Shown here in pieces: positions 2,076 through 23,800 of a DNA stretch of 32,000 nucleotides; position 1 is the stretch's first letter; the number at the start of each line of letters is the position of its first letter. Source of the stretch: Candidatus Peribacter riflensis. Its GTDB lineage: Bacteria; Patescibacteriota; Gracilibacteria; Peribacterales; Peribacteraceae. A program made the translations under genes and the position numbers. The stretch covers positions 1,216,027 through 1,248,026 of the forward strand of contig CP013062.1 of assembly GCA_001430755.1 (NCBI GenBank). Reading direction: 5' to 3'. The notes under the pieces are model-generated. The model was not told the DNA's origin. It did not search any database and saw nothing but the letters and a program-made list of their open reading frames with translations.

Positions 2076-5000
2076 ATGTTCCGGGCGTTTCGCACTCTCT
2101 TCTCGGCAGCATTTCTCAAGGGCGGGTTCGGCCTTGTGGGCATTGTCGCGCTTGCGTGGGCGCTCAATCAGGATGTGCAGAGCCCGGGTTTTCTGCGGGC
2201 GCAGACAGCAACATCGGGCGCCTTGGTCTGTTGGGGGAATGACTACGGGTATGCTCCGCCAGCCGGCGATTGGACTGATGTGACGGCCGGCTCAGCGTTC
2301 GCGTGTGCCATACGCGCCGCCGATGGCACGGTGGCGTGCTGGGGGGATAACCCCTACGGCCAAACGAATGCGCCTGCCGGACGATTTCAGAAGATCGATG
2401 CCGGAACGATGCATATGTGTGGCATCAAAGAAGACGGCTCGGTGGCCTGCTGGGGGACGAACAGCCATGGAGAATCGAATCCTCCCACGGGTAGATTCAT
2501 CGACATTACGGCGTCCCTCTCGTATTCCTGTGGCATCAAAGAAGACGGAACGATCGTCTGCTGGGGAGAGAATGTGAAAGGACAATTGAATGCGCCAACC
2601 GGAACATTCGTGCAGCTGACGGCGGAGGGCAATCATGGGTGCGCCCTGAAAGCGGATGGAACAGTCATGTGTTGGGGGGAGAATGTCAGCGGGTCCACCA
2701 CTCCTCCGGCAGGCACGTTCCGTCTCGTCGAAGCGGGATATGCCTATACGTGCGGCATCAAGACGGATGGAACACTGCAATGCTGGGGTCATGGCGGCGA
2801 AGGGCAAACCACCGCGCCGGCGGGGGCATTTTCTGATGTGGAGCTGGGAGTGAACCATGCGTGCGGTCTCCGGCAGGACGGGACGATCGTGTGTTGGGGA
2901 ATGAGCGTCGGCGGTCAAACGAATCCGCCCACGGGAACCTTCACGGATATTGGTGTGGGGCTGTACCATGGTTGTGCGATTAGAGTCTCTGCGGGGAACA
3001 GTTCCTCATCCGTCTCCGTACAGTCCTGCCCATTGGGGTACACCTGCTCGAAGATCACGTCGTTTTCGTGCGGGTCCTTGCAGCTTCCGCTTTGCACACT
3101 CGAATACAGCGGCTCGTGCGGAACACCCTCCTGTCAAGGGGTGTGTTTCCGGTGTCAGTCGAGCTCTTCTTCCACTCCCTCTGCGAGTATCACAGGTTCT
3201 GTGCAGCTCCCCAGCAGTGTTCCTCGCGGGGGCACCATCGTGTACCGCGTGACTGCTACGAATAACGGCAGTCAGCCTCTTTCGCAAATCGACGTGTATG
3301 TGCAATCAGCCGCGGCCAACACATTTGATGCCTCGCTCTCTGATTCCAGATGTGTCGGAGGCACGAATACGCAGAGTGTTGCCAACTGCGCCATTCCAAC
3401 GCTGGCGGCCGGGCAGTCTGTGACTGTGGATGTCGGGTTCAGGCTAGGGGCCGCTTTGTCATGTTCTGCGGTCATCAATTCCACTGTCTCGGTCAGAAGC
3501 ACGACCCCCTCGACCGTCTGGAATAGTGAGCTATTGCTGACGCCGGTGACCTGCGTGTCATCGAGCTCGAGTAGTAGTGTGCAAGGGAGCAGTTGTGTCG
3601 ATTCTGACGGCGGTATGAACCTTGATGTCGCCGGCACCGTCACCAGCACGTCCTGCAGCGGTTTTCCGCCGACGTGCATCACGGAAACGCACGCAGATGA
3701 GTGCGATGATCGTCCCGGTTATGAGAATGATATTGTTGAGTATTTCTGTGGCGGAGCGACGACAACGGATTGCGCAAACGGAAAGATCTGCCGCAACGGC
3801 GCCTGTGTTTTGAGTGCTTCCTCCTCTTCCTCCGCTGGGCAATGTATCGAAGGCATGCAGTACTGGGTGCCGGTGACTCTGACGCCTGCCAAAGACCTCA
3901 GGGCCTCGTGGCCCGGCACCGGCGACGCGTCGTACGTCGCCTATCTGAAGAGCACCAACGAAGTTTATCTCTCGCGCCTGTCGCTCTCTGGTCTTTCGAT
4001 CACCAAGGCAACGGATGCGCGGATTTCGGGTGGCAGTTCGCTTGTAGATGTGGTGGCCCTCACGCCTTCCGATATCTTCGTGGTCTACGACGACTCTGCC
4101 AGCCAGCGCTGCAAAGCCGTTCTGGTGCGCTGGTCAGGCGGCAATGCTGTCATCGGAACGCCGGTGGATGTGCCGGCATCGCAGTACAACCCCCGCTGTG
4201 ACACCGTGCTCATCGCCCGCAAGCTCTCGGAGGGCAGGATTGCGCTGCTCTGGGGCCTTGACCAGAACTATCCCACGCGCCTCGGCGCGACTACGGCGAC
4301 GGTGGATGTCGCTGCCGGCACGATCGCATTTGGCCCCATTCCCCAGGAGCTCTCTTATTTCGTTGGGACCTATCAGGGCTCCCCCTTCGGGGACAGGGGC
4401 AAGCAGGTGGAGGTGGTGGTGCGCGATGCGAATACCATCGCGATCATCGGCAGGGCCGGCGGCGCCATAGTTTCTCAGCCCCGGTGGTTCGCCAATCTGT
4501 TCGCGTGGACCACATCCAGAAGCGGGGGAGTCGGTGCGGCGGGCATGTGGGTGCGCGATTGCGCGATCAACGGTTCCACGTTCACCTGCGATGATCAGTC
4601 GGGAGGCAGCGTTGGCGCAACCGGCTATGAAGTGAGCGGGGCAAAGGTCGGATCGAATTTCGTCGTTGCGCCGACGTTGATCGGCAGCGGGCCCGGCGTC
4701 TCGGTTGAGGGCAAGACCGTCTCGGGATGGGGAGGTGCTCAGATTCCGGAATGGGAGAATAGCTGGACCAGCTTTTATACCTTTGTGCCGCTCTCGAACG
4801 GGCAGTTTATGATCACGGCGAAGACGCAGAATTCCACGATGGCTGCGCTGGGGCGCATCACCACCAGCGATATCGTCTGGTCGGCAATTACATCTCCTCC
4901 CGGCAGTAAGGTAGTCATTCCGGCAGGCGCCCAGGACAAATTTCTCTTCTTCTACTATCCGGATTCCGGTCAGTCGAATGGCCAGACCGCTGTGACGGCC

Positions 5001-5723
5001 GGCCAGTACACGGCGGATTGTCCGGGTTGCGGCAACGGGCAGTTGGATCCGGGCGAACAGTGCGGCGAACCGGGCTTGTCGTGTTCCGCGGGCCGGACAT
5101 GCCAGAGCTGCCAGTGCACTCTCATTCCTGCATCATCCTCTTCATCGCGTCCCGCGGTCTGCGGCAATGGCCAACTCGAGGGAGTGGAACAGTGTGAACA
5201 GGGAGTCCCCTGCGCACTTTCGGGAAGGCAGTGCAATTTCGGCACCTGCCAGTGTGTGCTTATCGTGCCATCCTCTTCCAGCTCCAGCGCGTCATCCGTT
5301 CCGGTTACGCCGGCGTCTTCCTCGCTGTCCGCTGCCTGCGGCAACGGTGTCCTGAATACGGGGGAACGGTGCGATACGACGGGCAATCTCGGCTGCGCCG
5401 CAAGCGAGACGTGCCAGAGCTGCACGGCGTGCACCCGCTGCGGCAACTTCGTCCTCGAGGAGGGCGAAGGGTGCGAAGTCGGCATTGCGTGTTCCTCGAG
5501 TCTGGCCTGCAACATCGGCACCTGCCGGTGCGAGACGGTCTTTAGCGGGATACAGACGCAGGCGCCTACCTGCGGTGACTTCCGCATCCAGCCGGGGGAG
5601 GACTGCGAATACGGCATCACGACGCCACAGCCGCCCTGTACCGGCAACGCTGTCTGCAACGTGCAGACCTGTCGGTGCCCCGCCGGCACGGCGCGCCACC
5701 CCCGTAACGCCCGTCTTCAGTGA
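2076..5723 (+). CDS. Giant secreted/surface protein 1 (1215 aa): N-terminal hydrophobic signal/anchor, 7-blade RCC1-like propeller, DUF11/CARDB-like domain, CxDxD Cys module, unknown beta-rich domain, 5 type-A Cys-rich repeats. No C-terminal anchor tail.
   Basis: Uninterrupted 3.6 kb ORF. N-terminus GGFGLVGIVALAWAL. Seven ~37 aa CWG..G....P.G.F......H.CG...DG repeats. TIVYRVTATNNGSQPL resembles the DUF11 conserved repeat. Five CGNG..E..E.C..C..C..C.C repeats at the 3' end. It ends CRCPAGTARHPRNARLQ with no TGP/AAGAAAG/RRR tail. Confidence 0.9.
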   Translation: MFRAFRTLFSAAFLKGGFGLVGIVALAWALNQDVQSPGFLRAQTATSGALVCWGNDYGYAPPAGDWTDVTAGSAFACAIRAADGTVACWGDNPYGQTNAPAGRFQKIDAGTMHMCGIKEDGSVACWGTNSHGESNPPTGRFIDITASLSYSCGIKEDGTIVCWGENVKGQLNAPTGTFVQLTAEGNHGCALKADGTVMCWGENVSGSTTPPAGTFRLVEAGYAYTCGIKTDGTLQCWGHGGEGQTTAPAGAFSDVELGVNHACGLRQDGTIVCWGMSVGGQTNPPTGTFTDIGVGLYHGCAIRVSAGNSSSSVSVQSCPLGYTCSKITSFSCGSLQLPLCTLEYSGSCGTPSCQGVCFRCQSSSSSTPSASITGSVQLPSSVPRGGTIVYRVTATNNGSQPLSQIDVYVQSAAANTFDASLSDSRCVGGTNTQSVANCAIPTLAAGQSVTVDVGFRLGAALSCSAVINSTVSVRSTTPSTVWNSELLLTPVTCVSSSSSSSVQGSSCVDSDGGMNLDVAGTVTSTSCSGFPPTCITETHADECDDRPGYENDIVEYFCGGATTTDCANGKICRNGACVLSASSSSSAGQCIEGMQYWVPVTLTPAKDLRASWPGTGDASYVAYLKSTNEVYLSRLSLSGLSITKATDARISGGSSLVDVVALTPSDIFVVYDDSASQRCKAVLVRWSGGNAVIGTPVDVPASQYNPRCDTVLIARKLSEGRIALLWGLDQNYPTRLGATTATVDVAAGTIAFGPIPQELSYFVGTYQGSPFGDRGKQVEVVVRDANTIAIIGRAGGAIVSQPRWFANLFAWTTSRSGGVGAAGMWVRDCAINGSTFTCDDQSGGSVGATGYEVSGAKVGSNFVVAPTLIGSGPGVSVEGKTVSGWGGAQIPEWENSWTSFYTFVPLSNGQFMITAKTQNSTMAALGRITTSDIVWSAITSPPGSKVVIPAGAQDKFLFFYYPDSGQSNGQTAVTAGQYTADCPGCGNGQLDPGEQCGEPGLSCSAGRTCQSCQCTLIPASSSSSRPAVCGNGQLEGVEQCEQGVPCALSGRQCNFGTCQCVLIVPSSSSSSASSVPVTPASSSLSAACGNGVLNTGERCDTTGNLGCAASETCQSCTACTRCGNFVLEEGEGCEVGIACSSSLACNIGTCRCETVFSGIQTQAPTCGDFRIQPGEDCEYGITTPQPPCTGNAVCNVQTCRCPAGTARHPRNARLQ
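2217..2990 (+). repeat. Seven tandem ~37 aa (~111-114 bp) RCC1-like blades, a predicted 7-blade beta-propeller
   Basis: Seven in-frame units each contain CWG, then G(Q/E)..(A/P)P.G.F, then H.CG(I/L)..DG(T/S). This is consistent with the short RCC1_2-type repeat. Confidence 0.75.
5017..5678 (+). repeat. Five type-A Cys-rich repeats forming the stalk of protein 1
   Basis: Examples: CGNGQLDPGEQCGEPGLSCSAGRTCQSCQC, CGNGQLEGVEQCEQGVPCALSGRQCNFGTCQC, CGNGVLNTGERC..., CGNFVLEEGEGCEVGIACSSSLACNIGTCRC, CGDFRIQPGEDCE...CNVQTCRC. Poly-Ser linkers separate them. Confidence 0.8.
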
Positions 5724-8700
5724 TCCGCATGATTCTTTCTTCCCTCCGCTTCCGGCAGATTGCCATCCTCCTCGCACTCGTCGTGACGGGGATGCTCATC
5801 GGCAACTTCGTGGGCAGTGGAGGGCGCTGGCAGGCGCAGGTGGCGCCGCCGGCCGTCTGCGGCAACAGCCGGTGCGAGCTCGGCGAGCGGAGGACGCTGC
5901 GCATCCCGTCACTTCCGATTTTCAGAACCGAGAATGACGGTGAGGTCATCATCGGACACGCGGTCTCGTACGCGGGCGATACCGACGGCAACGGCGCGGG
6001 CGACCTGCTCGTTGTGGGGACAGAAGCAGATTACGGGTCATACGATTCTGCTGCCCGCAAGAAGGTGTGGCTCGTGCGCATGGAACAGGACGGACGGATG
6101 AAATCGTACAGCCAGATCGCCGGACCGGAGTGGGGGTACCAATATGCTGAAGGAGGTTTCGCTGCAGGAGTTACGCTGGTGCAAAATCCCCAGGGTACCC
6201 CCGTGTACGCGGTCAGCAGCAACGAAAACAGCTATCCGAACTACACGGCTATCCGTTTCTATGACCAGTCAGGAGGTGCGATGGGAACATCCGGCGACGG
6301 CATCACCAATCTGCCGCATCACGTGCTCGCCGGCATCGGCGACATCGACGGCAATGGCATCGGCGATCTGGCGGTGGCCAACCAGTATGCAGACACCCCC
6401 TACGGCATGGGCAAAATCACAGTGGTGTTGCTCGAAGCGAATTACTCGGTCAAGTCTACGCATGTCATCGCTTCGGAAGGGGACGGTTTCGGCACCGATG
6501 ATCTGGCGATGGGCGGTCGGTCGATCACAGCGCTCGGCGATCTGGATGGCGATGGCTTGAAAGAAATCGCCGTGGGTAACGGCAATACCGGCGGCGGTGA
6601 GATGGGTTCGGTGTACATCTTGTCGCTGCGCGCGGATGGCAGTGTGGCAGACAAGCGGCTGCTGACACCCGGCAGCGATTTCACGCTGCAGGGCGAGCTC
6701 AACGGGTTTGCCAACAGCCTCGCGGGGGTCGGCGACTGGAACGGCGACGGCGTGCCCGATCTCGCCGTGCTGTCGTACGAGTACGTCGAACACCCTCCTC
6801 TTGTCGGGTCACACGCGTCGCCTGTCATTCACATTCTCTTGCTCACGGCGCAGAAAGGGGTGGCGGGTACGCAATCCTTCCGGTATGCGGATCTGGGGGC
6901 GTTCGCCGGAGCCGCCGTTTTCGGCAACGGCTGGCCGCTTGCTGCCATGCCCGATCAGGACGGCGACGGCAAGATGGAACTGATCTTGGGCGTGCCCGGC
7001 GACGGCTCGTGCGGGGGGCAGATTTCGAACCCGCAGGGGGCAGTGCACGTGATCCTGTCGCGCGCGATGACCGCGTGCCCGGGCGACTGCAATTTCTGCC
7101 CGCAATTGTCCTACACGCCCGCGCGGTCATCGCGGTACTTCTTTACTCCCGGCTACAGCACCCTTCCCCCGCTCGCGAGCTGCGGTAACAGCCAGTGCAA
7201 CGCGGGCGAGATGAATCCGGTTGTGCTGCAGGGGGCGGATGCGAATCAGCCGTACGTTGCGCTCTCTCTGTTCATGGGCACGAAATCCCTCGATACCTTG
7301 GGCGATTTCGACGGAGACGGCGTCGATGATCTGGTACTGGGGGGCGTGACGCAGAATGTGGCGGGTGTGGATCGTTACGGCATGAACGAGGTGCAGATTG
7401 TCCGTCTCAATTCCAACGGCACCCAGAAATCGGTCACCCGCATCTACGAAGGCACAAGTGGGCTGCAGACGGGCGATGCCGATGGTTCGTACATTGGCGC
7501 CATCGTCGCCTCGATCGGAGATCTCGATGCGGACGGCGTGCGCGATATTGCCGTATCGGCATTCCCGCAGTCCCGCACTCCCACATCGTATGCAGTATGG
7601 ATTCTGCTGCTGCGGTCGGATGGCACGGTGAAGTCGGCGCGCAAGATCGCAGCGGGGCAGGGCGGATTCACCGGTTCCATTGCGGAGAAGTTTGGTACGG
7701 CGCTGGAGGGAATCGGCGACTTCGACGGCGACGGCGTGCCCGATCTGGCCGTGGGTGATCCTGGTTACAGCACCTACAACACGGCCAAGGAAGGTCGGGT
7801 GCACTTGCTCATGCTCAACCGCAACGGGACGGTGAAATCCTCCAGGACCCTGTGGGCCTCGTCGTTCACGGCTGTGCCGAATACCAGCGACATGCTGCGT
7901 GCCTCGCACCCGTACATCCGGTTCGGGTCTGCGGTTGCATTTCTGGGCGACGTGCACTCTGACGGCAGAAAGTTCCTGGCGGTGGGGGGCGGCGAGAGCG
8001 TCTGGACCATGGCGTTCAATGTCGACGGGAGCCTGAACACGGTCAAGCGCACGCAGGGGACCGCAGTGTCACCCGCCGGCGATCAGGATGGCGACGGAAA
8101 GACAGACCTCATAATTTCGTACTCGCCTGATGAGCCTGCAGAAATCTGCCCTGAGTGTGAGCCAACCTATGACACCGCGTGGGCTGCGTACTACTCCGTT
8201 CTCACGGACGGCACACTGGAGCAGCTGTGGAATGCCAGCTACGGCAGTCTCTATCTTCCGGGTGGTGGAGGAACATGGTGGGGGAATCTTCCGGGGCGGG
8301 AGGTGGCGACCATCCGCGACTTAGACGGTGACCAGAAGCACGAGTTCATCATGCTGGATAGCGGCTCATTTACCTGCAGGGGGTCGTCGCACGTCGGCTT
8401 GGCGTGGCTGCTCTTCTCCGGCAGTTTGGGGCCCCGCTGCGAGGCCGATTGCGCCAGTGTGAATTTCTGCGCGGTACAGCAGCAGGCACCCGTGTGCGGC
8501 AACGGTACGGCGGAGTCGGGAGAGCAGTGCGGCGAACCCGGACTCTCGTGTTCCACCGGTCAGACATGCCAGAACTGTCTGTGTGTGGGAGGTACCTCCT
8601 CTTCACAGCAGAGCTTGGACGGTACGTGGGTGAATTGCCCGGCAGGGTGGGCCTGCAACAAGAGTCTGGATAGTGGAGTCTGCAATACGCGGTCGTTGAA

Positions 8701-11700
8701 TCCTCCTCCTCCGGGATGCACAACAGAAATGGGTACCACCTGCGGCACCGCCGCCTGTTCCGGCACCTGTTCCCGTATGGTCTGCGCCAGCTCCTCCTCG
8801 AGCAGTGCCGTATCGGTATCCGTGAGCTGCGGCAACGGCATCAAAGACGGCAGTGAGCAGTGCGAAAGCCCCGCAATGCGTCAGACCATGACGACGGGTC
8901 CCCGGCCCGGATGGGTTCGACACGGCGACTTCAACGCGGATGGCTGGCAGGATCTTGTAACGGTCAATTACAGTTCGGATAATGCCAATAATTCCATTTC
9001 CGTTTTTCTCAACAGAGGCGACGGTACATTCTTTACCAAAGTCGATTACCCGTTCACACCGCAGCACCAAGTCTTATCCATAGATGTGTACGATATGAAT
9101 GACGACGGAAAGGTGGATTTCATCGTGAGGAGCGGCGGAAAGCTCCGCGTTCTCAAAGGCAACGGGGACGGTACCTTCCAGTCTCCAGCATCTTTTTTAC
9201 CTGGTGATCCGTTTACCACTGGGATTGGTGCGGCATTCGGCGATTTCAACGAAGACGGGCGCACTGATGTTGTCACCGGCATCACTCTCTCCAGCGGTGT
9301 GCAATTCTTCGCAGGGCAGGGAGGCGGGGCGTTTGCGGCCGGCGTCACTGCTGCCGGATATCCGAGCCACTTGCACATCGTTACTGCGGATTTCGATGCC
9401 GACGGGCATACGGACGTCGCTTTTTTGCCTACCAACAGCGGGAATGATCCTTCCGATGCCACGTTCGAGGGGTCAGTACAGGTGTTGTACGGCAATGGGG
9501 CGGGAGCGTTCACCGCCGTGCCGATTCCGCAACCATCTTCCTCTGTTTCCAACATGATGGGATTTTTCGTCCGGGATGCAAACCTGGACGGACGTCCCGA
9601 TCTCATCGTGCGCGGCAACGGTTCGGTTTCTACCATCTGGATCAACAATGGGAACCGCACGTTTCAGGAGAAGACCACCAACGGGGGCCCAATGGGGGAA
9701 TCACGCGCGTTCTTCGATATCGATGGCGACGGAAAAATGGATGTCATCACGAGTGCCTATTCCACCGGTATGGGCAAGCAGCTGGAGGTACACAAGGGCG
9801 TCGGGGACGGGTCGTTCCAGAACACTGCCAGTTACGTCATTCCACTGCCGCATTCCTATACCTGTCTGATGACCGCTATCATCGGCGCAGATTTCAATCG
9901 TGACGGCAAACTGGACATGGCTGTGGCCCATGGGAATGCCTGCCAGGACAACATCACAAACGCCGATGCCGTCTCGGTATTCCTGAGCCCCTGCGCACCG
10001 GGGCAAACCTGCGCGAATTGTCAGTGCAGCGGCGGCGTGCCGGTTTCTTCCTCAAGCTCCAGTCTTCCGGTGGTCGTTTCCTCCTCCAGCCATTCCTCCA
10101 GTGCCAGCATCATCGTCGGCTCCTCCTCCAGCATCGCCGTGGCCTCGTTCTGTCCGAACGGAGTCATCGAACCTGCGGAGCAGTGCGAGATCGGGTACGC
10201 CTGCCCCACAGGGTCCACGTGCAATTCCTTCTGTGTGTGTTCTGGCGGTGCGTCCTCCTCCTCTTCTATTGTTTCTTCCTTCCCCTCTTCTTCTCTCTCT
10301 TCCATTCCCTCCTCTGTGAGCTCGGCACAGAGCTCCGTTTCGATTGAGGTGTTCTGCGGCAATGCCGTGCTGGAGGGTACCGAGACGTGCGAAGCGAATC
10401 ATCCCTGCCCCACGGGTCAACTCTGCATGAACTGTCTCTGCTCAACACCCAGCTACTGCGGCGACAACGTCGTCAATACGGAGGATGGCGAACAGTGCGA
10501 ATCGGACCCCGACTGTTCGCAGGGTGAAGTGTGCACGTTGAATTGTCTGTGCCATGCAGGCACGGGAGGGAACTGCGGCAATGGGACGATGGAAGCGCTG
10601 GAGCAGTGCGAGCGCAACCATCCGTGCGGAGAAGGAATGCAGTGCCAGGCGTGCCTGTGCGTCGAGGTGCCGCGTTGCGGGAACAACGTCCGTGAGCGAG
10701 GGGAGCAGTGCGAGACGAACGTCTTCTGCCCTGTGGGCTCCTCGTGCGTGAATTGTCTCTGCCAGCAGGGCATGGATTGCGGAGACGGCAATCTGGCTGC
10801 GGGTGAACAGTGTGAGAAGGACAGCCACTGCCTCGAAGGGCAATTCTGCAATATGCTCGCATGCCAGTGCGAAGGAGCCGGCGCAGGGTGCGGCGACGGC
10901 ATGCTGGAGGGCTCGGAACAGTGCGAACTGGGCAGCCCGTGCCAGAACTTCGAAGAAAGCTGCGATCTCTCGACGTGCAGGTGCACGACCGATCCGATCA
11001 TCTCCACGTGCGGCAATGCGATGGTGGATGCCGGCGAAGATTGCGACATCGGCATGCCCTGCGGCGAGGGAGAGATCTGTAATTTTGCCAATTGCCACTG
11101 CATGTCGTGGGCGACGCGCTGTGGCGACGCACAGCTCTCGGAAAATGAGCAGTGCGAGATCGGTCTGCCGTGTGCCGACCTGGCGCAGGCGTGCGACCTG
11201 AGCCGGTGTGTCTGTGCGGCACTGGAACCAGACGCGAGCTGCGGCGATGGTCTGGTGGCTGTCGGCGAGGAGTGCGAGGTGGGCGTTCCCTGTCCATTCG
11301 GGTGGTCCTGCAATTACTCGCGTTGCCAGTGTCTCAATCTGCCGATCTGCGGCGATGGGTCGCAGGATGCCGGAGAACAGTGTGAGGTGACCCTGGCCTG
11401 TTCCGAGAGCGGCATGATGTGCGATTTCTCGCGCTGTCGCTGCGTCGGGAATCTCGTGGCCTGCGGGAACGGCGTGCTTGATCCCGGTGAGCAGTGTGAC
11501 GACGGAGACACGTCTGCCGGTGACGGCTGCGATGCCCGGTGCCAGCGGGAATGGATCACGATGGTGGGCGGAACATCGATCTGCGGCAATGGTATTGTGG
11601 AGCTGCCGGAGGAGTGCGACGACAGTAATGTGCTTTCCGGAGACGGATGCTCGGGTGATTGCCGTTTGGAGATTGGCGGTGTGATACCTAATCTCGATAC

Positions 11701-12034
11701 TCCCGGGTTGAGCATCTCGCCGGAACATGCTGCAGGGCCGACCATTCAGGCAGGACAGATGGCACAGGGCGGACAAATACAGCCGGGTGGCAGTGCGGCA
11801 AGCTCGGGCGTCCCGTCACAGGGTGCCGGAACCGGGCCGGAGACCATCGTCTTCCCCGGGCAGCAGGGTGTAATTTCGCCGTTCGCGCAGCAATCACCTG
11901 CCTACTACGGTTCCGTCATTCCTCCCTTCGCTCCGGTGAGCGGACCTGTGGGGAGCACCGGACCGGCGGCCGTTGCGGTGATCGCGGCGGGGGCGGCGAG
12001 TGGGTGGGCGTGGATGCGGAGACGGCGCAGGTGA
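5720..12034 (+). CDS. Giant surface protein 2 (2104 aa): three FG-GAP/VCBS-type beta-propellers, 13 type-A and 2 type-B Cys-rich repeats, Pro/Gly/Ser spacer, TGP-type C-terminal anchor
   Basis: 6.3 kb ORF. A GTG at 5720 overlaps the upstream TGA (GTGA); an alternative ATG lies at 5729. N-terminal helix IAILLALVVTGMLIG. Many GD.DGDG.(P)DL.VG loops typical of FG-GAP. A FNADG/FNEDG/FDADG propeller. A tandem CG[ND]G..E..EQCE array. Tail GPVGSTGPAAVAVIAAGAASGWAWMRRRRR. Confidence 0.9.
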   Translation: MIRMILSSLRFRQIAILLALVVTGMLIGNFVGSGGRWQAQVAPPAVCGNSRCELGERRTLRIPSLPIFRTENDGEVIIGHAVSYAGDTDGNGAGDLLVVGTEADYGSYDSAARKKVWLVRMEQDGRMKSYSQIAGPEWGYQYAEGGFAAGVTLVQNPQGTPVYAVSSNENSYPNYTAIRFYDQSGGAMGTSGDGITNLPHHVLAGIGDIDGNGIGDLAVANQYADTPYGMGKITVVLLEANYSVKSTHVIASEGDGFGTDDLAMGGRSITALGDLDGDGLKEIAVGNGNTGGGEMGSVYILSLRADGSVADKRLLTPGSDFTLQGELNGFANSLAGVGDWNGDGVPDLAVLSYEYVEHPPLVGSHASPVIHILLLTAQKGVAGTQSFRYADLGAFAGAAVFGNGWPLAAMPDQDGDGKMELILGVPGDGSCGGQISNPQGAVHVILSRAMTACPGDCNFCPQLSYTPARSSRYFFTPGYSTLPPLASCGNSQCNAGEMNPVVLQGADANQPYVALSLFMGTKSLDTLGDFDGDGVDDLVLGGVTQNVAGVDRYGMNEVQIVRLNSNGTQKSVTRIYEGTSGLQTGDADGSYIGAIVASIGDLDADGVRDIAVSAFPQSRTPTSYAVWILLLRSDGTVKSARKIAAGQGGFTGSIAEKFGTALEGIGDFDGDGVPDLAVGDPGYSTYNTAKEGRVHLLMLNRNGTVKSSRTLWASSFTAVPNTSDMLRASHPYIRFGSAVAFLGDVHSDGRKFLAVGGGESVWTMAFNVDGSLNTVKRTQGTAVSPAGDQDGDGKTDLIISYSPDEPAEICPECEPTYDTAWAAYYSVLTDGTLEQLWNASYGSLYLPGGGGTWWGNLPGREVATIRDLDGDQKHEFIMLDSGSFTCRGSSHVGLAWLLFSGSLGPRCEADCASVNFCAVQQQAPVCGNGTAESGEQCGEPGLSCSTGQTCQNCLCVGGTSSSQQSLDGTWVNCPAGWACNKSLDSGVCNTRSLNPPPPGCTTEMGTTCGTAACSGTCSRMVCASSSSSSAVSVSVSCGNGIKDGSEQCESPAMRQTMTTGPRPGWVRHGDFNADGWQDLVTVNYSSDNANNSISVFLNRGDGTFFTKVDYPFTPQHQVLSIDVYDMNDDGKVDFIVRSGGKLRVLKGNGDGTFQSPASFLPGDPFTTGIGAAFGDFNEDGRTDVVTGITLSSGVQFFAGQGGGAFAAGVTAAGYPSHLHIVTADFDADGHTDVAFLPTNSGNDPSDATFEGSVQVLYGNGAGAFTAVPIPQPSSSVSNMMGFFVRDANLDGRPDLIVRGNGSVSTIWINNGNRTFQEKTTNGGPMGESRAFFDIDGDGKMDVITSAYSTGMGKQLEVHKGVGDGSFQNTASYVIPLPHSYTCLMTAIIGADFNRDGKLDMAVAHGNACQDNITNADAVSVFLSPCAPGQTCANCQCSGGVPVSSSSSSLPVVVSSSSHSSSASIIVGSSSSIAVASFCPNGVIEPAEQCEIGYACPTGSTCNSFCVCSGGASSSSSIVSSFPSSSLSSIPSSVSSAQSSVSIEVFCGNAVLEGTETCEANHPCPTGQLCMNCLCSTPSYCGDNVVNTEDGEQCESDPDCSQGEVCTLNCLCHAGTGGNCGNGTMEALEQCERNHPCGEGMQCQACLCVEVPRCGNNVRERGEQCETNVFCPVGSSCVNCLCQQGMDCGDGNLAAGEQCEKDSHCLEGQFCNMLACQCEGAGAGCGDGMLEGSEQCELGSPCQNFEESCDLSTCRCTTDPIISTCGNAMVDAGEDCDIGMPCGEGEICNFANCHCMSWATRCGDAQLSENEQCEIGLPCADLAQACDLSRCVCAALEPDASCGDGLVAVGEECEVGVPCPFGWSCNYSRCQCLNLPICGDGSQDAGEQCEVTLACSESGMMCDFSRCRCVGNLVACGNGVLDPGEQCDDGDTSAGDGCDARCQREWITMVGGTSICGNGIVELPEECDDSNVLSGDGCSGDCRLEIGGVIPNLDTPGLSISPEHAAGPTIQAGQMAQGGQIQPGGSAASSGVPSQGAGTGPETIVFPGQQGVISPFAQQSPAYYGSVIPPFAPVSGPVGSTGPAAVAVIAAGAASGWAWMRRRRR
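5858..7099 (+). repeat. FG-GAP-type propeller 1 of protein 2, bracketed by Cys half-motifs
   Basis: CGNSRCELGE lies upstream. Multiple GD.DG.G.GDL.V loops follow. The downstream flank is ACPGDCNFC. Confidence 0.7.
7181..8470 (+). repeat. FG-GAP-type propeller 2 of protein 2, bracketed by Cys half-motifs
   Basis: CGNSQCNAGE lies upstream. Loops GDFDGDGVDDLVLG, GDLDADGVRDIAVS, GDFDGDGVPDLAVG and GDQDGDGKTDLIIS. The downstream flank is RCEADCASVNFC. Confidence 0.7.
8828..10027 (+). other. Type-A Cys repeat split by an inserted ~370 aa FNADG/VCBS-like beta-propeller (protein 2)
   Basis: First half CGNGIKDGSEQCESP at 8828-8872. Insert with FNADGWQDLV, MNDDGKVDFI, FNEDGRTDVV, FDADGHTDVA, ANLDGRPDLI, IDGDGKMDVI and FNRDGKLDMA. 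Second half SPCAPGQTCANCQC at 9986-10027. Confidence 0.75.
10151..11671 (+). repeat. Thirteen tandem Cys-rich repeats (11 type A, then 2 type B), the main stalk of protein 2
   Basis: In-frame units of ~96-105 bp, e.g. CGNGTMEALEQCERNHPCGEGMQCQACLC and CGDGMLEGSEQCELGSPCQNFEESCDLSTCRC. The array ends with CGNGVLDPGEQCDDGDTSAGDGCDARCQRE and CGNGIVELPEECDDSNVLSGDGCSGDCRLE. Confidence 0.85.
11942..12034 (+). other. Putative C-terminal sorting/anchor signal of protein 2
   Basis: GPVGSTGPAAVAVIAAGAASGWAWMRRRRR followed by the stop. It has three parts: a motif, an Ala/Gly-rich hydrophobic helix and a basic cluster. Confidence 0.6.
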
Positions 12035-17004: not shown

Positions 17005-20000
17005 ATGGGGATGAGGTTTAGTATTTCTGCCGTGCGTCCGTTTTCCAGCAGGTTTCCCTTCCGGAACTCCGTTCTCGTTGCGGGTTTTCTGTTGGCGGCC
17101 GTGTTCTCCGTCATCGTGCTTCGTTCGTTCGGTGGTCATTCGACCGCAACGCTCGGCGTGAACGACCGTTGCACGAATTTGAGCGGCAACCCTCCTCCCG
17201 GGGGTGTGCAGCTCTATCATCCCTACCAAATGCCGCATGATGTGACGCTGTACAACACCTGCACGACAGAAGAGAACTGTCCGAGTTGTACCGTGAGTCA
17301 ATGTGCCCGTTGCTACGTCGAAGAGTACGTGTGCGGAGGTATCTCGGCCGGGAGTTACTTCAAGAACACTACCGAGTGCAATCTCTGTGAAAACGGCGTG
17401 TGTACCGAGGCCGCCACGAGCTCGTTCGCTTCTGAGGGCGCCGGCCCGGAGCTTCGCCCGACCATCGAGATCGCCGAGCGCACAGGTGAGGTCTACTGTA
17501 ACGCCCCGTACGGCACGAAGTGCTACGACCTGGTATGGACGATTGCCAACGTGGGGCGCACCGAAGAATACGTATCCAGCTTCAATATCAGCACCTCGCC
17601 CGGTCTCCGCTTTTTTGAGACCGTGACCAACTGCAACAGAATGGGTGATGATAACGTCGAGTGTCCGTTTCCCGGTGGCCAGGGCAAGCACTTTCCGGCT
17701 GGTTACAGCGAAACGTGGCGGTTTCCCATCGTCGCAGATGAACCGCCGGCGACCTGTCCGAATTCTATTGCAACTTATTATGCCGCATCGGCTCTGTACG
17801 CAGGGTTCAATGGCGTGAGCTACCTTCAGATTCCCTGTACAGAGTCCGCTTCGTCCTCTTCATCTGATGGGATTCTTCATGGCTGTGTCGATCCGGATGG
17901 CAGTGATTTTTACAGAAAAGTGCGCACAGAAATATACTTCGATGGCGTGCCTGATCCTATAAAAGGCAGGACGGATTCCTGCAATGGGGACCGGGCGATT
18001 GATTACTACTGCGACTCGCCCATACAAAACATGATGTTCGGTCCGTCCCAACAACAACACCTGTGTCCCTATGGTTGTGTGAATGGCGCATGCCAGTGGG
18101 GACCGAATGTCTGCCAGAATGGCGTGATTCCTGTGCAATCGCGTCCCCAATTCATCACTGCCGTCGGATCAAAAGTCTATGTGCTGAACTTCGTCAGCAG
18201 GAGCATCTCGGTCATCAACACAGCGACCAATACCGTGTCCGCTACGATTCCCATGGGGTCCCGTATCGATGCCATCGCAGCCGTCGGGTCGAAGGTGTTT
18301 GTGGCGAATTCCGGGAACTCAACCGTCTCCGTCATCAATGCCGCCATCGATACCGTCATGACCGCCATTCCTATGAGTCCCTATCCAACCGGTTTCGTTG
18401 TCGTTGGAACGAAGCTGTATGTCTTGCAGGGGGGCGAGCCTGTCATCTCCGTCATCAATACCGTCACGAATACCGTGCAATCCACGATCCAGGTGGGGGA
18501 TTTTACCTATGACCTTGCCGCCGTTGGGACGTACGTGTACGCGGCAAATGAAAATCTCGTCATCTCCGTCATCAATACTGCAACCAATACGGTACAGACT
18601 ACGATCCCCATGAGTGCCCGCCCCAACACGCTCATTGCTGCCGGCTCAAAGCTGTACGTGACGCACTGGGATACCGGCATTGTTTCCGTCATCAACACCG
18701 CGACCAATACAGTCGAGGCCACAATCCCCGTGGGGACAAATCCCCGTTCTCTCGCAGTCGCCGGAACGAAGGTGTATGTGGCAAATGTCAGCAGTAACAA
18801 TGTTTCCGTCATCGATACGAACACCAATACCGTGCTCGCCACCATTCCCGTGGGCATGCGACCCTACGCTCTCGCCGTCTCCGGCACGAAGGTGTATGCC
18901 GTGGGGGGTACTGCGGTCACTGTCATCGATACGAACACCAATACCGTGCTCGCCACCATCGCTGCAGGGGCAAATCTTGAGGCCATCGCTGTCTCCGGCA
19001 CGAAGGTGTATGTGGCGGGCAACCACGTCGATGGAAGAGTGTTCGTCGTCGATACCCTGACCGACACTCTGTCGTGCAGCGCCGCAACGGCGGTTTCCTC
19101 TTCATCTGCCTCTCAGTGTCCCACGCCACCTCCTCCTCCTGCCGGATGCGCACTGATCTGCACGAATGGGAATCCCTGTCCGCTGTGTCATGTGCAGTGT
19201 CCCAGCTCCTCCTCAAGTTCGCGTTCTTCCTCCGCCTCAGCGATTCCGGCCGGTTCTTCTTCCAGCGCCGTCGCCAGCTCAGCAGGTCCTTCCTCTGTGT
19301 CTTCCGCCGCCCAGACCTCCCAATCTTCATCCAGCTCTCAGGCTGTGAGTTCGGTGGGTGCCCTCTGCGGCAATCGTGTCATTGAAACCGGTGAGCAGTG
19401 TGATGACGGAAACGTCGTTCCCGGAGACGGGTGCGGCCAAATCTGCCAGCGCGAGGCAGGATGGGTCTGTTCCGGCGTGCCAAGCGTGTGCACCACCGTC
19501 TGCGGCGACGGCATCCGCGCGGGAGTGGAGCAGTGCGACGATGCCAACCTGAACAACGGTGATGGCTGTTCCAGGACCTGTCAGACCGAACAGGGGGTTT
19601 CTTCTACCGCCTCTTCCCAGCCCATTGCTGTCATCTCTTCGTCGGCGGCCTCGGGCGCTCCTACCTGCGGCAACGGACAGCGCGAGGGGAGTGAGCAGTG
19701 CGAAGCGGATGCGGAATGCACCGCAGGGACCATCTGCCGGAGCTGCCGATGTATCGCACCGACACAGCGGTGTGGCAATGGAACGGTGGAAGCTCCCGAG
19801 CAGTGTGATTCAGGACATCCCTGCCCGGATGGCGGCTTCTGCACGGCCACCTGCTCCTGTGTTCCGCGCTCCTCCACTTCGGCCCGCAGCAGCGCTCCTT
19901 CCCCGTCCTGTGGCAACGGCACGCTCAATGACAGCGAGGAGTGTGAAATCAATGCACCGTGTCCCATCCCCGGTTCCGTCTGTGTGAACTGCGTCTGCCG

Positions 20001-20874
20001 TCCACCGGCGGCATCGTGCGGCAATGGGCTGATCGAAGACCAGGAGGAATGTGAGTTCGGTTATTCCTGCAGCGATCAGGGTATCTGTCAGGATTGCCGG
20101 TGCGGCCCCGGCGCAGAGACAACTGCTCTGTTGCAGGCTTCCTCCAGCGTGACGGCCCCCGCCCCTGCGCCCCTGACGCTTCCGCAAATCTGTGGCAATG
20201 CCCTCCTCGAGGGTTCGGAGCAGTGCGAGACGAATGCAGCGTGCCCGCGTCCCGGGGATCTGTGTGTGGATTGTCAGTGTCATAATCCCCCTCAGGCGCG
20301 CTGCGGGAATACGCAATTGGAATTATCGGAAGAGTGCGACGACGGCAATACACAGGATGGCGACGGCTGCTCCGGCCTGTGTCAGCGCGAGACGATCAAT
20401 CTCATTGCCTCTCAGGCCATCTGCGGCAACGGTCTCATCGAGCGGGATGAGGAGTGTGACGACGGCAACACGGTTTCGGAGGATGGATGTTCCGCTGTCT
20501 GCCAGCGCGAAGTTCTGCCACCACGGTTAGAACTCACACTCCTTCCCGAGCAGCCCGCCTCTTCGTCTGTTGCCTTTCAGCCTGTTTCCAGCGCGCCTGC
20601 AGTGACCGTCCCGGTGCGCACCGGTCCTACCCCCAAGAGGGCAGTGTCTTCCGTTCCAGCCTTCTTTCCCGCTGCACCCGTTCCCTCTGCCCTTGCTCCT
20701 TCTATTCTCGCCACAACCATCGTCCAGCCGCCCTCCTGGCAGGCGTATGCTTCCGTCATTCCCTACGCTCCGCCCACAGGCCCCGTTGGTTCCACCGGTC
20801 CGGCCTCTGTCGCCCTAATGGCCGCAGGTGCTGCGGCAGGTCTGGCGTGGATGCGGAGAAAGCGGAAACCATAG
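17005..20874 (+). CDS. Giant surface protein 4 (1289 aa): N-terminal anchor, DUF11/CARDB-like region, CxDxD module, ~8-blade YVTN-type propeller, 9-repeat Cys stalk, spacer, TGP-type C-terminal anchor
   Basis: 3.9 kb ORF. N-terminal VLVAGFLLAAVFSVIVL. Eight ~40 aa repeats of the form VSVINTATNTV.ATIPVG..P..LAV.GTKVYVAN. Stalk repeats. Tail GPVGSTGPASVALMAAGAAAGLAWMRRKRKP. Confidence 0.9.
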   Translation: MGMRFSISAVRPFSSRFPFRNSVLVAGFLLAAVFSVIVLRSFGGHSTATLGVNDRCTNLSGNPPPGGVQLYHPYQMPHDVTLYNTCTTEENCPSCTVSQCARCYVEEYVCGGISAGSYFKNTTECNLCENGVCTEAATSSFASEGAGPELRPTIEIAERTGEVYCNAPYGTKCYDLVWTIANVGRTEEYVSSFNISTSPGLRFFETVTNCNRMGDDNVECPFPGGQGKHFPAGYSETWRFPIVADEPPATCPNSIATYYAASALYAGFNGVSYLQIPCTESASSSSSDGILHGCVDPDGSDFYRKVRTEIYFDGVPDPIKGRTDSCNGDRAIDYYCDSPIQNMMFGPSQQQHLCPYGCVNGACQWGPNVCQNGVIPVQSRPQFITAVGSKVYVLNFVSRSISVINTATNTVSATIPMGSRIDAIAAVGSKVFVANSGNSTVSVINAAIDTVMTAIPMSPYPTGFVVVGTKLYVLQGGEPVISVINTVTNTVQSTIQVGDFTYDLAAVGTYVYAANENLVISVINTATNTVQTTIPMSARPNTLIAAGSKLYVTHWDTGIVSVINTATNTVEATIPVGTNPRSLAVAGTKVYVANVSSNNVSVIDTNTNTVLATIPVGMRPYALAVSGTKVYAVGGTAVTVIDTNTNTVLATIAAGANLEAIAVSGTKVYVAGNHVDGRVFVVDTLTDTLSCSAATAVSSSSASQCPTPPPPPAGCALICTNGNPCPLCHVQCPSSSSSSRSSSASAIPAGSSSSAVASSAGPSSVSSAAQTSQSSSSSQAVSSVGALCGNRVIETGEQCDDGNVVPGDGCGQICQREAGWVCSGVPSVCTTVCGDGIRAGVEQCDDANLNNGDGCSRTCQTEQGVSSTASSQPIAVISSSAASGAPTCGNGQREGSEQCEADAECTAGTICRSCRCIAPTQRCGNGTVEAPEQCDSGHPCPDGGFCTATCSCVPRSSTSARSSAPSPSCGNGTLNDSEECEINAPCPIPGSVCVNCVCRPPAASCGNGLIEDQEECEFGYSCSDQGICQDCRCGPGAETTALLQASSSVTAPAPAPLTLPQICGNALLEGSEQCETNAACPRPGDLCVDCQCHNPPQARCGNTQLELSEECDDGNTQDGDGCSGLCQRETINLIASQAICGNGLIERDEECDDGNTVSEDGCSAVCQREVLPPRLELTLLPEQPASSSVAFQPVSSAPAVTVPVRTGPTPKRAVSSVPAFFPAAPVPSALAPSILATTIVQPPSWQAYASVIPYAPPTGPVGSTGPASVALMAAGAAAGLAWMRRKRKP
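18148..19077 (+). repeat. About eight ~40 aa (~117-120 bp) YVTN-family beta-propeller repeats
   Basis: A recurring core tccgtcatcaa(t/c)ac.gc.accaatac.gt encodes SVINTATNTV at about 18216, 18329, 18449, 18566, 18686, 18806 and 18917. The last two units share an identical ~36 nt stretch, gtcatcgatacgaacaccaataccgtgctcgccaccat. Confidence 0.8.
19366..20511 (+). repeat. Nine-repeat Cys stalk of protein 4, in the order B, B, A, A, A, A, A, B, B
   Basis: The first units are CGNRVIETGEQCDDGNVVPGDGCGQICQRE, CGDGIRAGVEQCDDANLNNGDGCSRTCQTE and CGNGQREGSEQCEADAECTAGTICRSCRC. Later units are CGNALLEGSEQCETNAACPRPGDLCVDCQC, CGNTQLELSEECDDGNTQDGDGCSGLCQRE and CGNGLIERDEECDDGNTVSEDGCSAVCQRE. Confidence 0.85.
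20383..20742 (+). repeat. Copy 1 of a 360 bp block identical to 24940-25299, covering the last type-B repeat and the spacer of proteins 4 and 5
   Basis: The offset is 4557 bp. The flanking mismatches are 20382 t versus 24939 c and 20743 g versus 25300 c. Off-frame ORFs 20487.. and 25044.. begin with the same ~84 aa. Confidence 0.85.
20779..20874 (+). other. Putative C-terminal sorting/anchor signal of protein 4
   Basis: GPVGSTGPASVALMAAGAAAGLAWMRRKRKP followed by the stop. Confidence 0.6.
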
Positions 20875-20892: not shown

Positions 20893-23800
20893 GTGCAACA
20901 AATGGCAAACAGCTCCTTTGAACAGAAAGTGATACGCTCAGCGGGAAATATGCCCGATTTCTTACGGTCCGGAGCGGCGGCGTCTTCTCTGCACAGGCGC
21001 AGAGGCTTTGTGGTGCTGGGGATCGCCGGGGTGGCCGTGCTGGGGTGGATATCTCTGCAGAGTCGGCAATCCATGCACATGTTCACCGCACAGGTGATGG
21101 GCGATACACCCTACTGCGGCAACAATATCCGCGAGACGGGGGAACAGTGCGACAGCGGGTATGCATGGGGCAGAATTGAGGGCTGTGGTATCAATCAGGT
21201 ATGTCAGCGTTGTCAGTGCGTCACGCTCACGTCTGCGAATCAACACTGCATAGGCACGGCATGCTATGCAGGAGTAAATAATTGTCCTTCAGGGACACCG
21301 GCATGCGATGTGACCTGTGCCTGTTCCGCGATCTGGTGGCCACACTGCGGCGATGCACGGTGCATGTCTTTCGAGCAGGGGGCAGGTGGGCGGATCATCC
21401 ATCCTTCGGCAACCGGGCCGATCCAAAACAGAGTGGAGGGCTTCGGCATGGATATCGTTCCCATGGGCGATCTGGATGCGGACCAGATCCCGGACGTCGT
21501 TGTTCTGGCTACCGGGAACGGCACCCCGTTCGTCAGCGGCACGATCCATGTGATCTATATGAATCGCAACGGCACCGCCAAGCGTATTGATCCGCTGCCT
21601 TATGTGCCGGAGCGTCAGGGTCTTGCCCCACTCAAGCTGGCCTACGCAATGGAATCAGTCGGGGATATCGACAGCAACGGCGTTCCCGATCTTGCCCTGT
21701 ATGCGTGGACCGGCACGTATACGGAAGGGGACTATGGCAATGACGAAGAGATACGTATCCTTCGGCTGCAGCGGACGGCGGAAGGGGTTTCCGTTCTTGC
21801 CGACAGGGCAAATCCGGAGCCGCAAGAACAGGCGCGCCAGGGATACGGATACGATCTGGCCTACCTGGGCAATGGCAGACTGGCTGCATATCTGGGGCGA
21901 GGTGACTCCTTCGACGAGGCGGTTGGCATTTTCCAGATTTCATCGAATGGAAACATTGCGCAGATCGGCACCGTTCAAGGAGTCTCCGGTGGGAATGTGC
22001 TTGGTGCGCCCGGCGATCTCAATGGAGACGGCGCAAATGATCTCCTGTGGAATCGGACGGTGGCTTTTCTCTCGCAGGACGGGACATCGGTCTTGTCGCA
22101 GCAGACAATCGCCTTCGGGAGCCCGTACTTCAATGATGGATTTATTCATTCGAATCCCTGGGGGGACACGGATGGGAACGGAGTCCCGGATCTGCTCCTC
22201 GGTATGGTGAGTCAGCAGGGCAAGTACGAGAATATCGGTATCGTGGGAAAGGTATTGCTCGAGCGTACTTCGGGCAATCCGCCCCTCCGGGTGAAATCCT
22301 CTCAGATCATGTATTCCCCCGAACAACCTGCGCGTTTCGGCGGAGCTTTTGGAAGGGCCGCGGCGAACGTGGGCGATATCGACGGTGACGGACAGCCGGA
22401 TATCATGATCGGCTCGCCCGAAACATTCTTCTGCGTCGATGGCACGCAAGTGCATGGATGCTCCGGCACGCATCCCGGTGCTGTTTGGGTGTACCTCTCC
22501 GGCGCCGGTGTTCCGATCTGCACTGCAGACTGCGGCTCCGCACCAATTTCTCCATCTTCGTCTTCTGCTCCGATTCCCCCATCTTCGTCTTCTGTTCCGA
22601 TTCCCCCATCTTCGTCTTCTGTTCCGATCATTCCGAGCTCCTCTTCGCAGGCGGCTGTCTGTGGGGACGGGCGCTTCGCAGCGACCAAGCAGTGCGAGCC
22701 ATCAGGCATGCTGCAGACTTTGCCTACGAACGGTATCCCCGATGCGGTCCGGGCGGGCGACTTCAACGCAGACGGCAACGCGGATCTGGTCACGCTGAAT
22801 CTAAGCCCCAATCGAACCGGCAGCATCAATGTCTTTCTCGGCGCGGGGGACGGCAGTTTCAGCCCCGGAGCGAATTATCAAGTTGGCAATGTGCAATCCG
22901 TCTTCCAGGCCGCCGATGCGCAGGGCGACGGCAAGTTAGACCTTTTGCTGGGGGCAACACACATCATGAGAGGCAATGGAGATGGCACGTTCCAGCCTGT
23001 ATCATCCCTGCTGCCGCAAGGCGCTGATGTCGCTGTAGGCGATTTTAACGAAGACGGCCGTCCCGATATCTTCACCACCACCGTATCCTCGCCCAACTCT
23101 CCGCATGTGGAGCAGCTCTTCGCAGGTCAGGCCGGGGGAGGCTTCGCCGCCGGCGTCACCGTCGCGGAGTTTCCGCACCCTTGGAGCAATATCGTCACGG
23201 CAGACTTTGACGCGGATGGCCACCTCGATGTCGCGTACCTGCCGACCGGTAATTCCAATGACCCACCGGGGCTCACCGCCAATTTCACGGTGCAGATACT
23301 CTACGGCAACGGGAACGGCGCCTTCATCTCGGTACCATTGACGCTCAGCAGTTGGACGAGCGGCGCCACCGGTCTGTGGATGGCGGATATCAACGGGGAT
23401 GGACGCAGCGATCTTTACATGGATGGCAACGGCAACGTGGGGCCATTTTGGCTCAACAACGGCAACCGCACGTTTGAAGCAAAGAACAATTATATGGGGA
23501 ATCTGAATGACCCCGCTGCGCTCATCGATGTCGATGGCGACGGCAAGGCCGATGTCATCACCGGCGGCCGTACCGCCTCGCCCACCATTGAGATCCACAA
23601 AGGCAATGGCGATGGCTCCTTTGTCCAATCACCCCTGTATTCCTTTGGAGTCACGTACCCGCTCTGGCACTCAGAAGGGAATATCGCCCAGGCGGACTTC
23701 GATCATGACGGTAGGCTGGACTTCGCCATCGCCCGGACAAGCATCGCCGATGCGGGGGCGAACTTCATCATCGTGCAGATCAGCCCCTGCGCTCCCGGAC

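Follow-up and report, generated by a model that had tools for sequence, protein, structure and literature searches.

The stretch of DNA analysed here (the window) comprises 32,000 nucleotides of contig CP013062.1 from Candidatus Peribacter riflensis, a bacterium of groundwater, and carries a cluster of genes for very large secreted proteins. Two of these, proteins 2 and 5, each contain a canonical six-cysteine repeat, here called type A, that is interrupted by a VCBS beta-propeller. The two propellers are very likely insertions into the loop between the second and third cysteines (C2-C3) of the repeat, which would give these modules a nested-insertion origin. The host repeat is continuous in its paralogous copies, is broken at one loop by a complete domain, and has kept both of its parts. 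The part that precedes the propeller (cysteines C1 and C2) is referred to below as the N-half and the part that follows it (C3 to C6) as the C-half; the coordinates of the features are collected in Table 1.

A type-A repeat split around a propeller

Two kinds of cysteine repeat can be recognized in the window. Regular expressions retrieved 37 intact six-cysteine type-A repeats (CGNGxxExxEQCExxxxCxxGxxCxxCxC) and 29 four-cysteine type-B repeats, the latter corresponding to the 'Myxococcus cysteine-rich repeat' (TIGR02232/PF13948). A type-A hidden Markov model (HMM) was built from the 37 intact window repeats, which score between 27.9 and 49.7 bits against it. The C2-C3 loop, with 5-12 residues, has the widest spread of lengths among the type-A loops and departs from its modal length in 11 of 40 repeats. 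As the most length-variable part of the repeat, it is a natural insertion site.

Splicing the flanks of the protein 2 propeller (CGNGIKDGSEQCESP and SPCAPGQTCANCQC) gives 29 residues, the modal length of the repeat, and splicing those of protein 5 (CGDGRFAATKQCEPS and SPCAPGQTCSSSCQC) gives 30. The cysteines of the splices are canonically spaced (C-x10-C-x5-C-x5-C-x2-4-C-x-C, with a total length within 29-32 residues), and the N-halves fit the motif C-G-[ND]-G-x5-E-[EQ]-C-[ED], as judged by the type-A HMM score. Against this model, the spliced halves score 39.3 bits in protein 2 and 34.2 bits in protein 5, inside the range of the intact repeats, as compared with 5-6 ± 3.7 bits, and a maximum of 17, for shuffles in which the cysteines were held fixed. 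None of 500 such shuffles reached the observed scores. The N-halves taken alone score 23.4 bits (protein 2) and 15.3 bits (protein 5), again unequalled (0 of 300 shuffles), and every half lies singly above its own Cys-fixed shuffles. As whole units, the split modules of the two proteins are about 48-49% identical.

Alignment leads to the same picture. In four MAFFT modes, all of them unguided, each of the 37 intact repeats is divided between the two sides of the propeller: C1 falls on the first cysteine of the N-half, C6 on the last cysteine of the C-half, and the gap opens in the C2-C3 loop. When 36 propeller homologues were added to the alignment, the intact repeats were again split across the propeller. 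A scan of the seven large window proteins with the type-A HMM revealed exactly two orphan C-halves, which are these two sites, and the only N-half matches that lack a following type-A, type-B or variant C-half are their two partners in front of the same VCBS propellers. Ser-rich linkers lie on the outer flank of each half, so that no other cysteine partners are found nearby.

The first-pass annotation of this DNA had proposed that a canonical type-A repeat is interrupted by a propeller in both proteins, and the spliced HMM scores, the shuffles and the MAFFT alignments agree in bearing this out; for the VCBS flanks, the resemblance to intact repeats is far above the level of Cys-fixed shuffles. 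The peptides that it quoted lie where it had placed them, except that CGDARC starts at 21346 and not at 21345. That the likeness of the VCBS flanks reflects chance among Cys-rich sequences, or an error of assembly, has a negligible probability. Chance is effectively ruled out by the 500 shuffles just mentioned, and an assembly artefact by independent assemblies: the same sequence occurs in several of them, including the NCBI Ca. Peribacter riflensis genomes (13 contigs), and also in a second Peregrinibacteria metagenome-assembled genome.

Existing models and structures capture the type-A repeat poorly. The spliced split repeat reaches 17.0 bits (E 0.007) against PF13948 (DUF4215), under the gathering threshold of 27 bits, and the intact type-A arrays likewise stay under this threshold. 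The best match in a search of the PDB with the type-A profile is a segment of 16 residues in ADAM17 (CGNSRVDEGEECDPGS), which is marginal (E 0.1), and sequence searches of the PDB with type-A repeats returned no solved homologue apart from it. The segment belongs to the N-terminus of the ADAM disintegrin, which binds Ca2+ (CGNxxxExGEECD), and the match is taken here as a lead rather than as evidence of membership.

The inserted propeller

The insert is a complete seven-bladed integrin-like beta-propeller of the VCBS/FG-GAP_3 type. Pfam FG-GAP_3 matches it with 197 bits in protein 2 and 169 bits in protein 5, and seven Dx[DN]xDG-type loops are apparent in the alignment. AlphaFold2 (AF2) models the protein 2 insert with a mean predicted local distance difference test score (pLDDT) of 82 and a predicted template modelling score of 0.83. 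Foldseek matches with a probability of 1.00 include Streptomyces UmbA4, the fungal PVL lectin, the TcB/TcC propeller, integrin alpha and CRTAC1.

The AF2 strand list contains 28 strand positions, that is, 7 blades of 4 strands. Blades 1-6 have four strands each, blade 7 has three C-terminal strands, and an extra strand (AF2 residues 25-29) precedes blade 1. The C-half begins one residue after the last propeller strand. From these counts, we infer that strand 25-29 would complete blade 7 as its fourth, outer strand and would provide a velcro closure as in integrin-type propellers. With such a closure, both halves would emerge where an ordinary blade has one hairpin turn. The proposal of the first-pass annotation that the N- and C-termini of the propeller lie next to each other is therefore supported by strand counting in the AF2 model, in which the N-terminal strand appears to complete blade 7.

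Blade 7 of the protein 2 propeller also contains an extra cysteine pair, Cys1373 and Cys1403 (9836-9838 and 9926-9928; SYTCLMT / GNACQDN). This pair is kept in P0253 and P0285, the two relatives described in the next section, and is absent from protein 5. It probably forms an intra-blade disulfide next to the seam.

Conservation of the split module

A word-indexed search with the protein 2 module gave, as its best 120 matches, generic propeller proteins of ~700 residues, none with Cys flanks; a search of this kind missed even the 48%-identical paralogue in protein 5. An exhaustive profile search recovered, besides proteins 2 and 5, another two proteins whose match extends over the whole module, flanks included. 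The same split, for which the first-pass annotation had proposed a survey of homologues, is thus present with the same junctions in two more Peregrinibacteria proteins. These are P0253, in which the module reads CGNGMLETGKQCDVP … SPCAPGQTCASCQC, and P0285 from Candidatus Peregrinibacteria bacterium CG1_02_54_53, in which it reads CGSGRFQSGKQCDLP … SPCAPGQTCASCQC. Spliced, the halves of these two reach 38.3 and 28.5 bits, respectively, against the type-A HMM, scores that 0 of 300 shuffles attained. Overall identity among the four modules is 49-66%, their junctions are identical, and SPCAPGQTC is invariant in the C-half. Such a pattern would be expected if the propeller had been inserted a single time and the module had since duplicated and diverged, while selection preserved both halves.

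The nesting theme recurs in P0253, where a second and different VCBS propeller (residues ~554-985) is bracketed by CGDGNVTYPSEQCD … CELKNPCASGTCNGATCQC, with 25.6 bits for the splice and 0 of 300 shuffles at this score. The six-cysteine C-flank of this second propeller (CLSGQGGCELKNPCASGTCNGATCQC) has its own 'CE' element, and the geometry of the split is slightly different. A scan of genome contigs gave propellers only, from other phyla, at no more than 30% identity near full length (no more than 43% over short segments); the source lineage was not among its matches. In a scan of metagenome contigs, made with a two-sequence profile, the matches listed followed generic patterns (GNGDGTF) and included no close relatives.

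Probable re-association of the two halves

The two halves probably come together again, covalently, at the base of the propeller, in line with the first-pass annotation, which saw in them a possible staple of the ring. This part of the proposal rests on the velcro topology described above and on homology to a human protein of solved structure. The N-halves of type-A and type-B repeats are homologous (hhalign probability 95%, E 1.7e-8), and the type-B profile matches residues 947-978 of human PAPP-A (CGDGIIQKDQGEQCDDMNKINGDGCSLFCRQE) with an E of about 1e-8. According to the disulfide table of the cryo-electron microscopy structure of PAPP-A·STC2, domain M3 of PAPP-A, which has two bound Ca2+ ions, contains the disulfides C947-C975 and C960-C971, in other words a nested C1-C4/C2-C3 arrangement (PMC9579167 supplement). 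Given these nested disulfides and the homology of the N-halves, the split repeat should require C-half partners for both its C1 and its C2. By spacing, C4 and C5 of type A would correspond to C3 and C4 of type B, which suggests the pairs C1-C5 and C2-C4, with C3-C6 added. A hairpin with nested disulfides would also explain why the insertion occurred at its tip, between C2 and C3.

Several observations weigh against re-association, and most of them favour instead a reading in which the insertion is real and the halves stay apart. The N-half would then close on itself through C1-C2 and the C-half through two local disulfides, so that they would form independent caps or linker knots and no clamp. 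The parity of the cysteines, 2 in one half and 4 in the other, permits purely local disulfides of this kind. With hhalign, the C-half of type A could not be aligned to that of type B, so that carrying the PAPP-A connectivity over to six cysteines is an extrapolation and the disulfide pattern may not be transferable. Glu10, present in every one of 54 intact repeats (33 of type A, 21 of type B), is kept in the split N-half of protein 2 and replaced by lysine in the other three of the four (protein 5 Lys599, at 22687-22689; P0253 residue 1148; P0285 residue 1037). The split N-half is thus not fully canonical at this position, where the change may mean that a Ca2+ ligand or a structural role has been lost, or that a new contact with the propeller has been gained. 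Furthermore, P0227, an unrelated protein, has an orphan N-half directly before its propellers and no C-half anywhere, which shows that an N-half can exist without a partner.

Structure prediction gave no more than moderate confidence for the flanks. In an AF2 run on residues 585-1060 of protein 5 with propeller homologues only, the propeller was well modelled and both flanks had a pLDDT <50. An intact control repeat in this construct was also <50, from which it follows that AF2 cannot fold the repeat without alignment depth and has little independent power here. In a run on residues 1030-1445 of protein 2 with the 37 intact repeats in the alignment, the pLDDT was 68-75 for the C-half, which forms a beta-hairpin (E401-403/E406-408) over C4-C6, and 41-62 for the N-half. 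This rise of the flanks, from below 50 to 62-75, speaks for re-association. The alignment used in this run, however, presupposes homology between the halves and the intact repeats, and the result is not an independent test of it.

Independent caps are nevertheless the unlikely alternative. In PAPP-A, the solved homologue, C1 and C2 pair with downstream cysteines and not with each other. Both halves have been kept at identical junctions in every module found, and the C-half is invariant though the modules as a whole are just 49-66% identical. Finally, the velcro closure suggested by the AF2 model would force the halves close together.

With re-association as the preferred reading, the following course of events can be proposed. 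A seven-bladed propeller with Ca2+ loops would have entered the C2-C3 loop, the tip of the type-A hairpin, once, and the nested module would then have been duplicated and have diverged within Peribacteria. The chain would run up the N-half (C1, C2), round the ring and down the C-half (C3-C6). Its first propeller strand would serve as the fourth strand of blade 7, with both halves leaving the ring where one hairpin turn would otherwise be. At this seam, the halves would most likely assemble into the repeat again, and C1 and C2 would form disulfides with cysteines of the C-half. By analogy with PAPP-A, the probable pairs would be C1-C5 and C2-C4, both bridging, and C3-C6 within the C-half. The reunited repeat would act as a short, doubly stapled pedestal with a disulfide ladder that locks the seam of the propeller, which would itself be a side-mounted binding head between Ser-rich linkers. 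The best explanation of the data is that this nested-domain module sits on an adhesin-like protein of the cell surface. In such a surface-anchored chain, tension would pass via the staple and spare the N-terminal velcro strand of blade 7; a mechanical shielding role of this sort is put forward as a tentative suggestion.

FG-GAP propellers and their cysteine brackets

Proteins 2 and 5 also contain three FG-GAP propellers, which are 28-31% identical to each other. These propellers are Cys-bracketed; their placement inside a split repeat is hypothetical. The three modules share an N-flank, C1-G2-[ND]3-x-x-C6-x-x-x-E10, and a C-flank, C-x-x-D-C, together with one cysteine in the last blade, and their total numbers of cysteines are even (6, 8 and 6).

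The first-pass annotation considered the FG-GAP brackets as a degenerate version of the split repeat and concluded that all five propellers of the two proteins are inserted in a Cys repeat. This would require, for example, a four-cysteine, type-B-like split with nested disulfides, and it is doubtful. The bracket cysteines are indeed conserved, and the N-flanks retain C1, G2, [ND]3 and E10 of the consensus; with 6-9 bits against the type-A HMM, they lie slightly above their Cys-fixed shuffles (0/300, 0/300 and 3/300). The CxxDC element of the C-flank has the type-B C3-x3-C4 spacing, and the even cysteine counts also suit this reading. By contrast, the C-flanks do no better than their shuffles with either HMM, type A or type B; for the spliced flanks, any excess over shuffles is unconvincing, and the bracket is absent from all of the best 120 FG-GAP homologues. 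The resemblance to a split repeat is therefore weak for the N-flanks and at chance level for the C-flanks, and the claim for all five propellers is too strong.

Elsewhere the repeat is intact and in line. In proteins from other phyla (P0402, P0455, P0494 and P0401), an intact type-B repeat comes right after the last FG-GAP strand (e.g. ...VYILSVDSGLISSCGDSQIALPETCDDGNITSGDGCYETCQIE). The same building blocks adjoin each other in these proteins, but they are serial, with no half-repeat upstream of the propeller. The nested form could have evolved from such an in-line pairing of FG-GAP propeller and type-B repeat.

The host proteins and their locus

Table 1. Features of proteins 2 and 5 in the window (positions are those of the window; AF2, AlphaFold2; HMM, hidden Markov model)
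Feature	Position	Strand	Basis or remark
N-half, protein 2 (CGNGIKDGSEQCESP; C1, C2)	8828-8872	+	HMM positions 1-14, partial match
C-half, protein 2 (SPCAPGQTCANCQC; C3-C6)	9986-10027	+	AF2 beta-hairpin
N-half, protein 5 (CGDGRFAATKQCEPS)	22660-22704	+	Translation, type-A HMM
C-half, protein 5 (SPCAPGQTCSSSCQC)	23782-23826	+	Translation, type-A HMM
Nested VCBS propeller, protein 2 (~371 aa, within C2-C3 loop)	8873-9985	+	Pfam FG-GAP_3
Nested VCBS propeller, protein 5	22705-23781	+	Pfam FG-GAP_3
First propeller strand (AF2 residues 25-29)	8879-8893	+	2-3 residues past N-half
Last propeller strand, third of blade 7 (AF2 residues 388-392)	9968-9982	+	DSSP list
FG-GAP propeller 1, protein 2 (CGNSRCELGE ... 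ACPGDCNFC)	5858-7099	+
FG-GAP propeller 2, protein 2 (CGNSQCNAGE ... RCEADCASVNFC)	7181-8470	+
FG-GAP propeller, protein 5 (CGDARCMSFEQG ... ICTADC)	21346-22533	+
One more intact type-A repeat, protein 2	8495-8584
Stalk of 12 intact type-A repeats, protein 2	10151-11443	+	Reference set
Two type-B repeats (TIGR02232/PF13948; four Cys)	11462-11671	+	Homologous to PAPP-A M3 module
Protein 2 (2104 aa)	5720-12034	+	Ca. Peribacter riflensis PeribacterA2_1141 (ALM10493.1)
Protein 5 (1513 aa)	20893-25434	+	Ca. Peribacter riflensis ALM10496.1
C-terminal tripartite sorting-type tail, protein 2 (GPVGSTGPA, hydrophobic stretch, RRRRR)	11942-12031	+
C-terminal sorting-type tail, protein 5	25330-25431

The upstream end of the window is occupied by a gene for a beta-CASP/MBL nuclease-like product (263-1954), which is followed by seven tandem genes on the forward strand, each coding for a very large secreted protein. 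Against a Cas14-type model, for which the cut-off is 800, the 263-1954 product scores 319 bits, and against aCPSF1, with a cut-off of 580, it scores 255 bits. Both scores are far under the cut-offs; the product is a generic member of the beta-CASP/MBL family, apparently without connection to the surface-protein cluster. Proteins 2 and 5 are at least 90% identical to ALM10493.1 and ALM10496.1, respectively, and fall in the same protein clusters. Because of these matches to Ca. Peribacter riflensis proteins, the window genes can be equated with the cluster of large Cys-rich extracellular proteins described in the Peribacter genome paper, where they were considered likely attachment factors and a major source of strain variation (PMC4736985).

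Protein 2 consists of an N-terminal signal or anchor, two FG-GAP propellers, the nested VCBS propeller, a stalk of type-A and then type-B repeats, and a sorting tail. Protein 5 has the same architecture but a single FG-GAP propeller. In both proteins the N-terminal element is hydrophobic, Ser-rich linkers separate the FG-GAP from the VCBS (FG-GAP_3) propellers, and the stalk of Cys repeats lies towards the C-terminus. The stop codon of protein 1 overlaps with the GTG taken as the start of protein 2 (5720-5723); in the NCBI version, protein 2 has 3 residues fewer and would start with the ATG at 5729.

A common C-terminal tail is found in proteins 2-7 (with ends including 16879, 20874, 29049 and 31991). 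It is composed of P-x-G-x-TGPA-[AS]-[VM]-A, the hydrophobic stretch AAGAAAG[WLF]AW and an Arg/Lys cluster. The tail of protein 2 stays under the cut-offs of the PEP-CTERM, LPXTG, IPTL-CTERM and MYXO-CTERM models. That of protein 5 scores 18.4 against PEP-CTERM (cut-off 16) and is the sole tail of the two proteins to pass. Against the LPXTG model, the conserved tail reaches 14.4 (cut-off 15.9); several models are thus nearly or just passed, and none fits cleanly. One possibility is that the tail of proteins 2-7 is a sorting signal peculiar to this lineage, of the sortase or exosortase type and with a TG(P) motif.

Other members of the cluster carry further propeller-like regions. Protein 1 starts with RCC1-like 'CWGxNxxGQ' repeats (2200-3000, residues ~50-300), which represent another propeller type, and ends in type-A repeats without a C-terminal sorting tail. 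Protein 4 contains about 8 '...SVINTATNTV...' repeats (18000-19100, residues ~330-700), apparently a YVTN/lactonase-like propeller. In front of them stands 'VCQNGVIPV', reminiscent of how an N-half begins (compare CPNGVIEP in protein 2), and behind them a Cys-containing stretch; this region may be a further bracketed propeller. Identical stretches are also shared between paralogues in their repeat and tail regions: 360 nucleotides in proteins 4 and 5 (20383-20742 and 24940-25299) and 905 nucleotides in proteins 6 and 7 (27838-28742 and 30780-31684). They suggest recent duplication or gene conversion among the paralogues, which fits the reported strain variation.

Relation to known nested domains and significance

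Nested domains are known from the integrin beta chain, where the beta-I domain lies inside the hybrid domain, itself inside the PSI domain, and a long-range PSI disulfide spans the insert. There, as in this case, a large insert divides a small host rich in disulfides, in the head of an adhesion receptor; the parts of the host are reunited in space in the integrin and would be so here. In the Peribacter proteins, however, the insert is a propeller like that of integrin alpha, the host is a myxo-type repeat of 29 residues, and the organism is a bacterium of the Candidate Phyla Radiation (CPR); there is no sequence relationship between the Peribacter split repeat and PSI. Disulfide closure of a propeller is likewise known. 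In the four-bladed propeller of hemopexin, the ring is closed by one disulfide between the first and last blades. The covalent tie proposed here would similarly join the N- and C-termini of the propeller but, in contrast to hemopexin, it would be a whole reunited mini-domain, probably with two bridging disulfides. PAPP-A, too, carries modules inserted in other domains. Its M3 domain is the only solved structure of the TIGR02232/PF13948 repeat family and shares a homologous N-half motif (CGxGxxxxxE[EQ]C[DE]) with the repeats of the window. Type A departs from it by its six cysteines and by its C-half, and the PAPP-A repeat is intact and not split.

Within the library of papers searched, there was no description of a propeller nested in a myxo-type Cys repeat, nor one that dissects these Peribacter proteins. 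The nested propeller architecture is thus a real, previously undescribed arrangement and a modest variation on known nested-domain designs. Nothing is overturned by it, since nested domains and disulfide-closed propellers are both known. Its value lies in showing the heads of these Peribacter proteins, whose architecture had not been dissected before, as propellers nested in a stalk repeat. In combination with the link of this stalk repeat to PAPP-A M3, this provides a concrete and testable structural model of how CPR bacteria build adhesin-like surface proteins. In addition, the C2-C3 loop stands out as a place where a very small disulfide scaffold naturally tolerates insertions, and could as such interest protein engineers.

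A more general idea, which is speculative and for the moment rather improbable, is that the myxo-type repeat serves in Peribacteria as a plug-in socket, a doubly disulfide-laddered hairpin whose tip loop takes up whole head domains. If this were true, its inserts would include VCBS propellers of two or more kinds and perhaps, via the degenerate bracket, FG-GAP propellers. The repeat would then be a natural scaffold for loop grafting that protects the weak velcro seam of propellers under load, and the ligand-binding propellers of this ultra-small, probably symbiotic bacterium would be force-shielded side branches of a tensile stalk.

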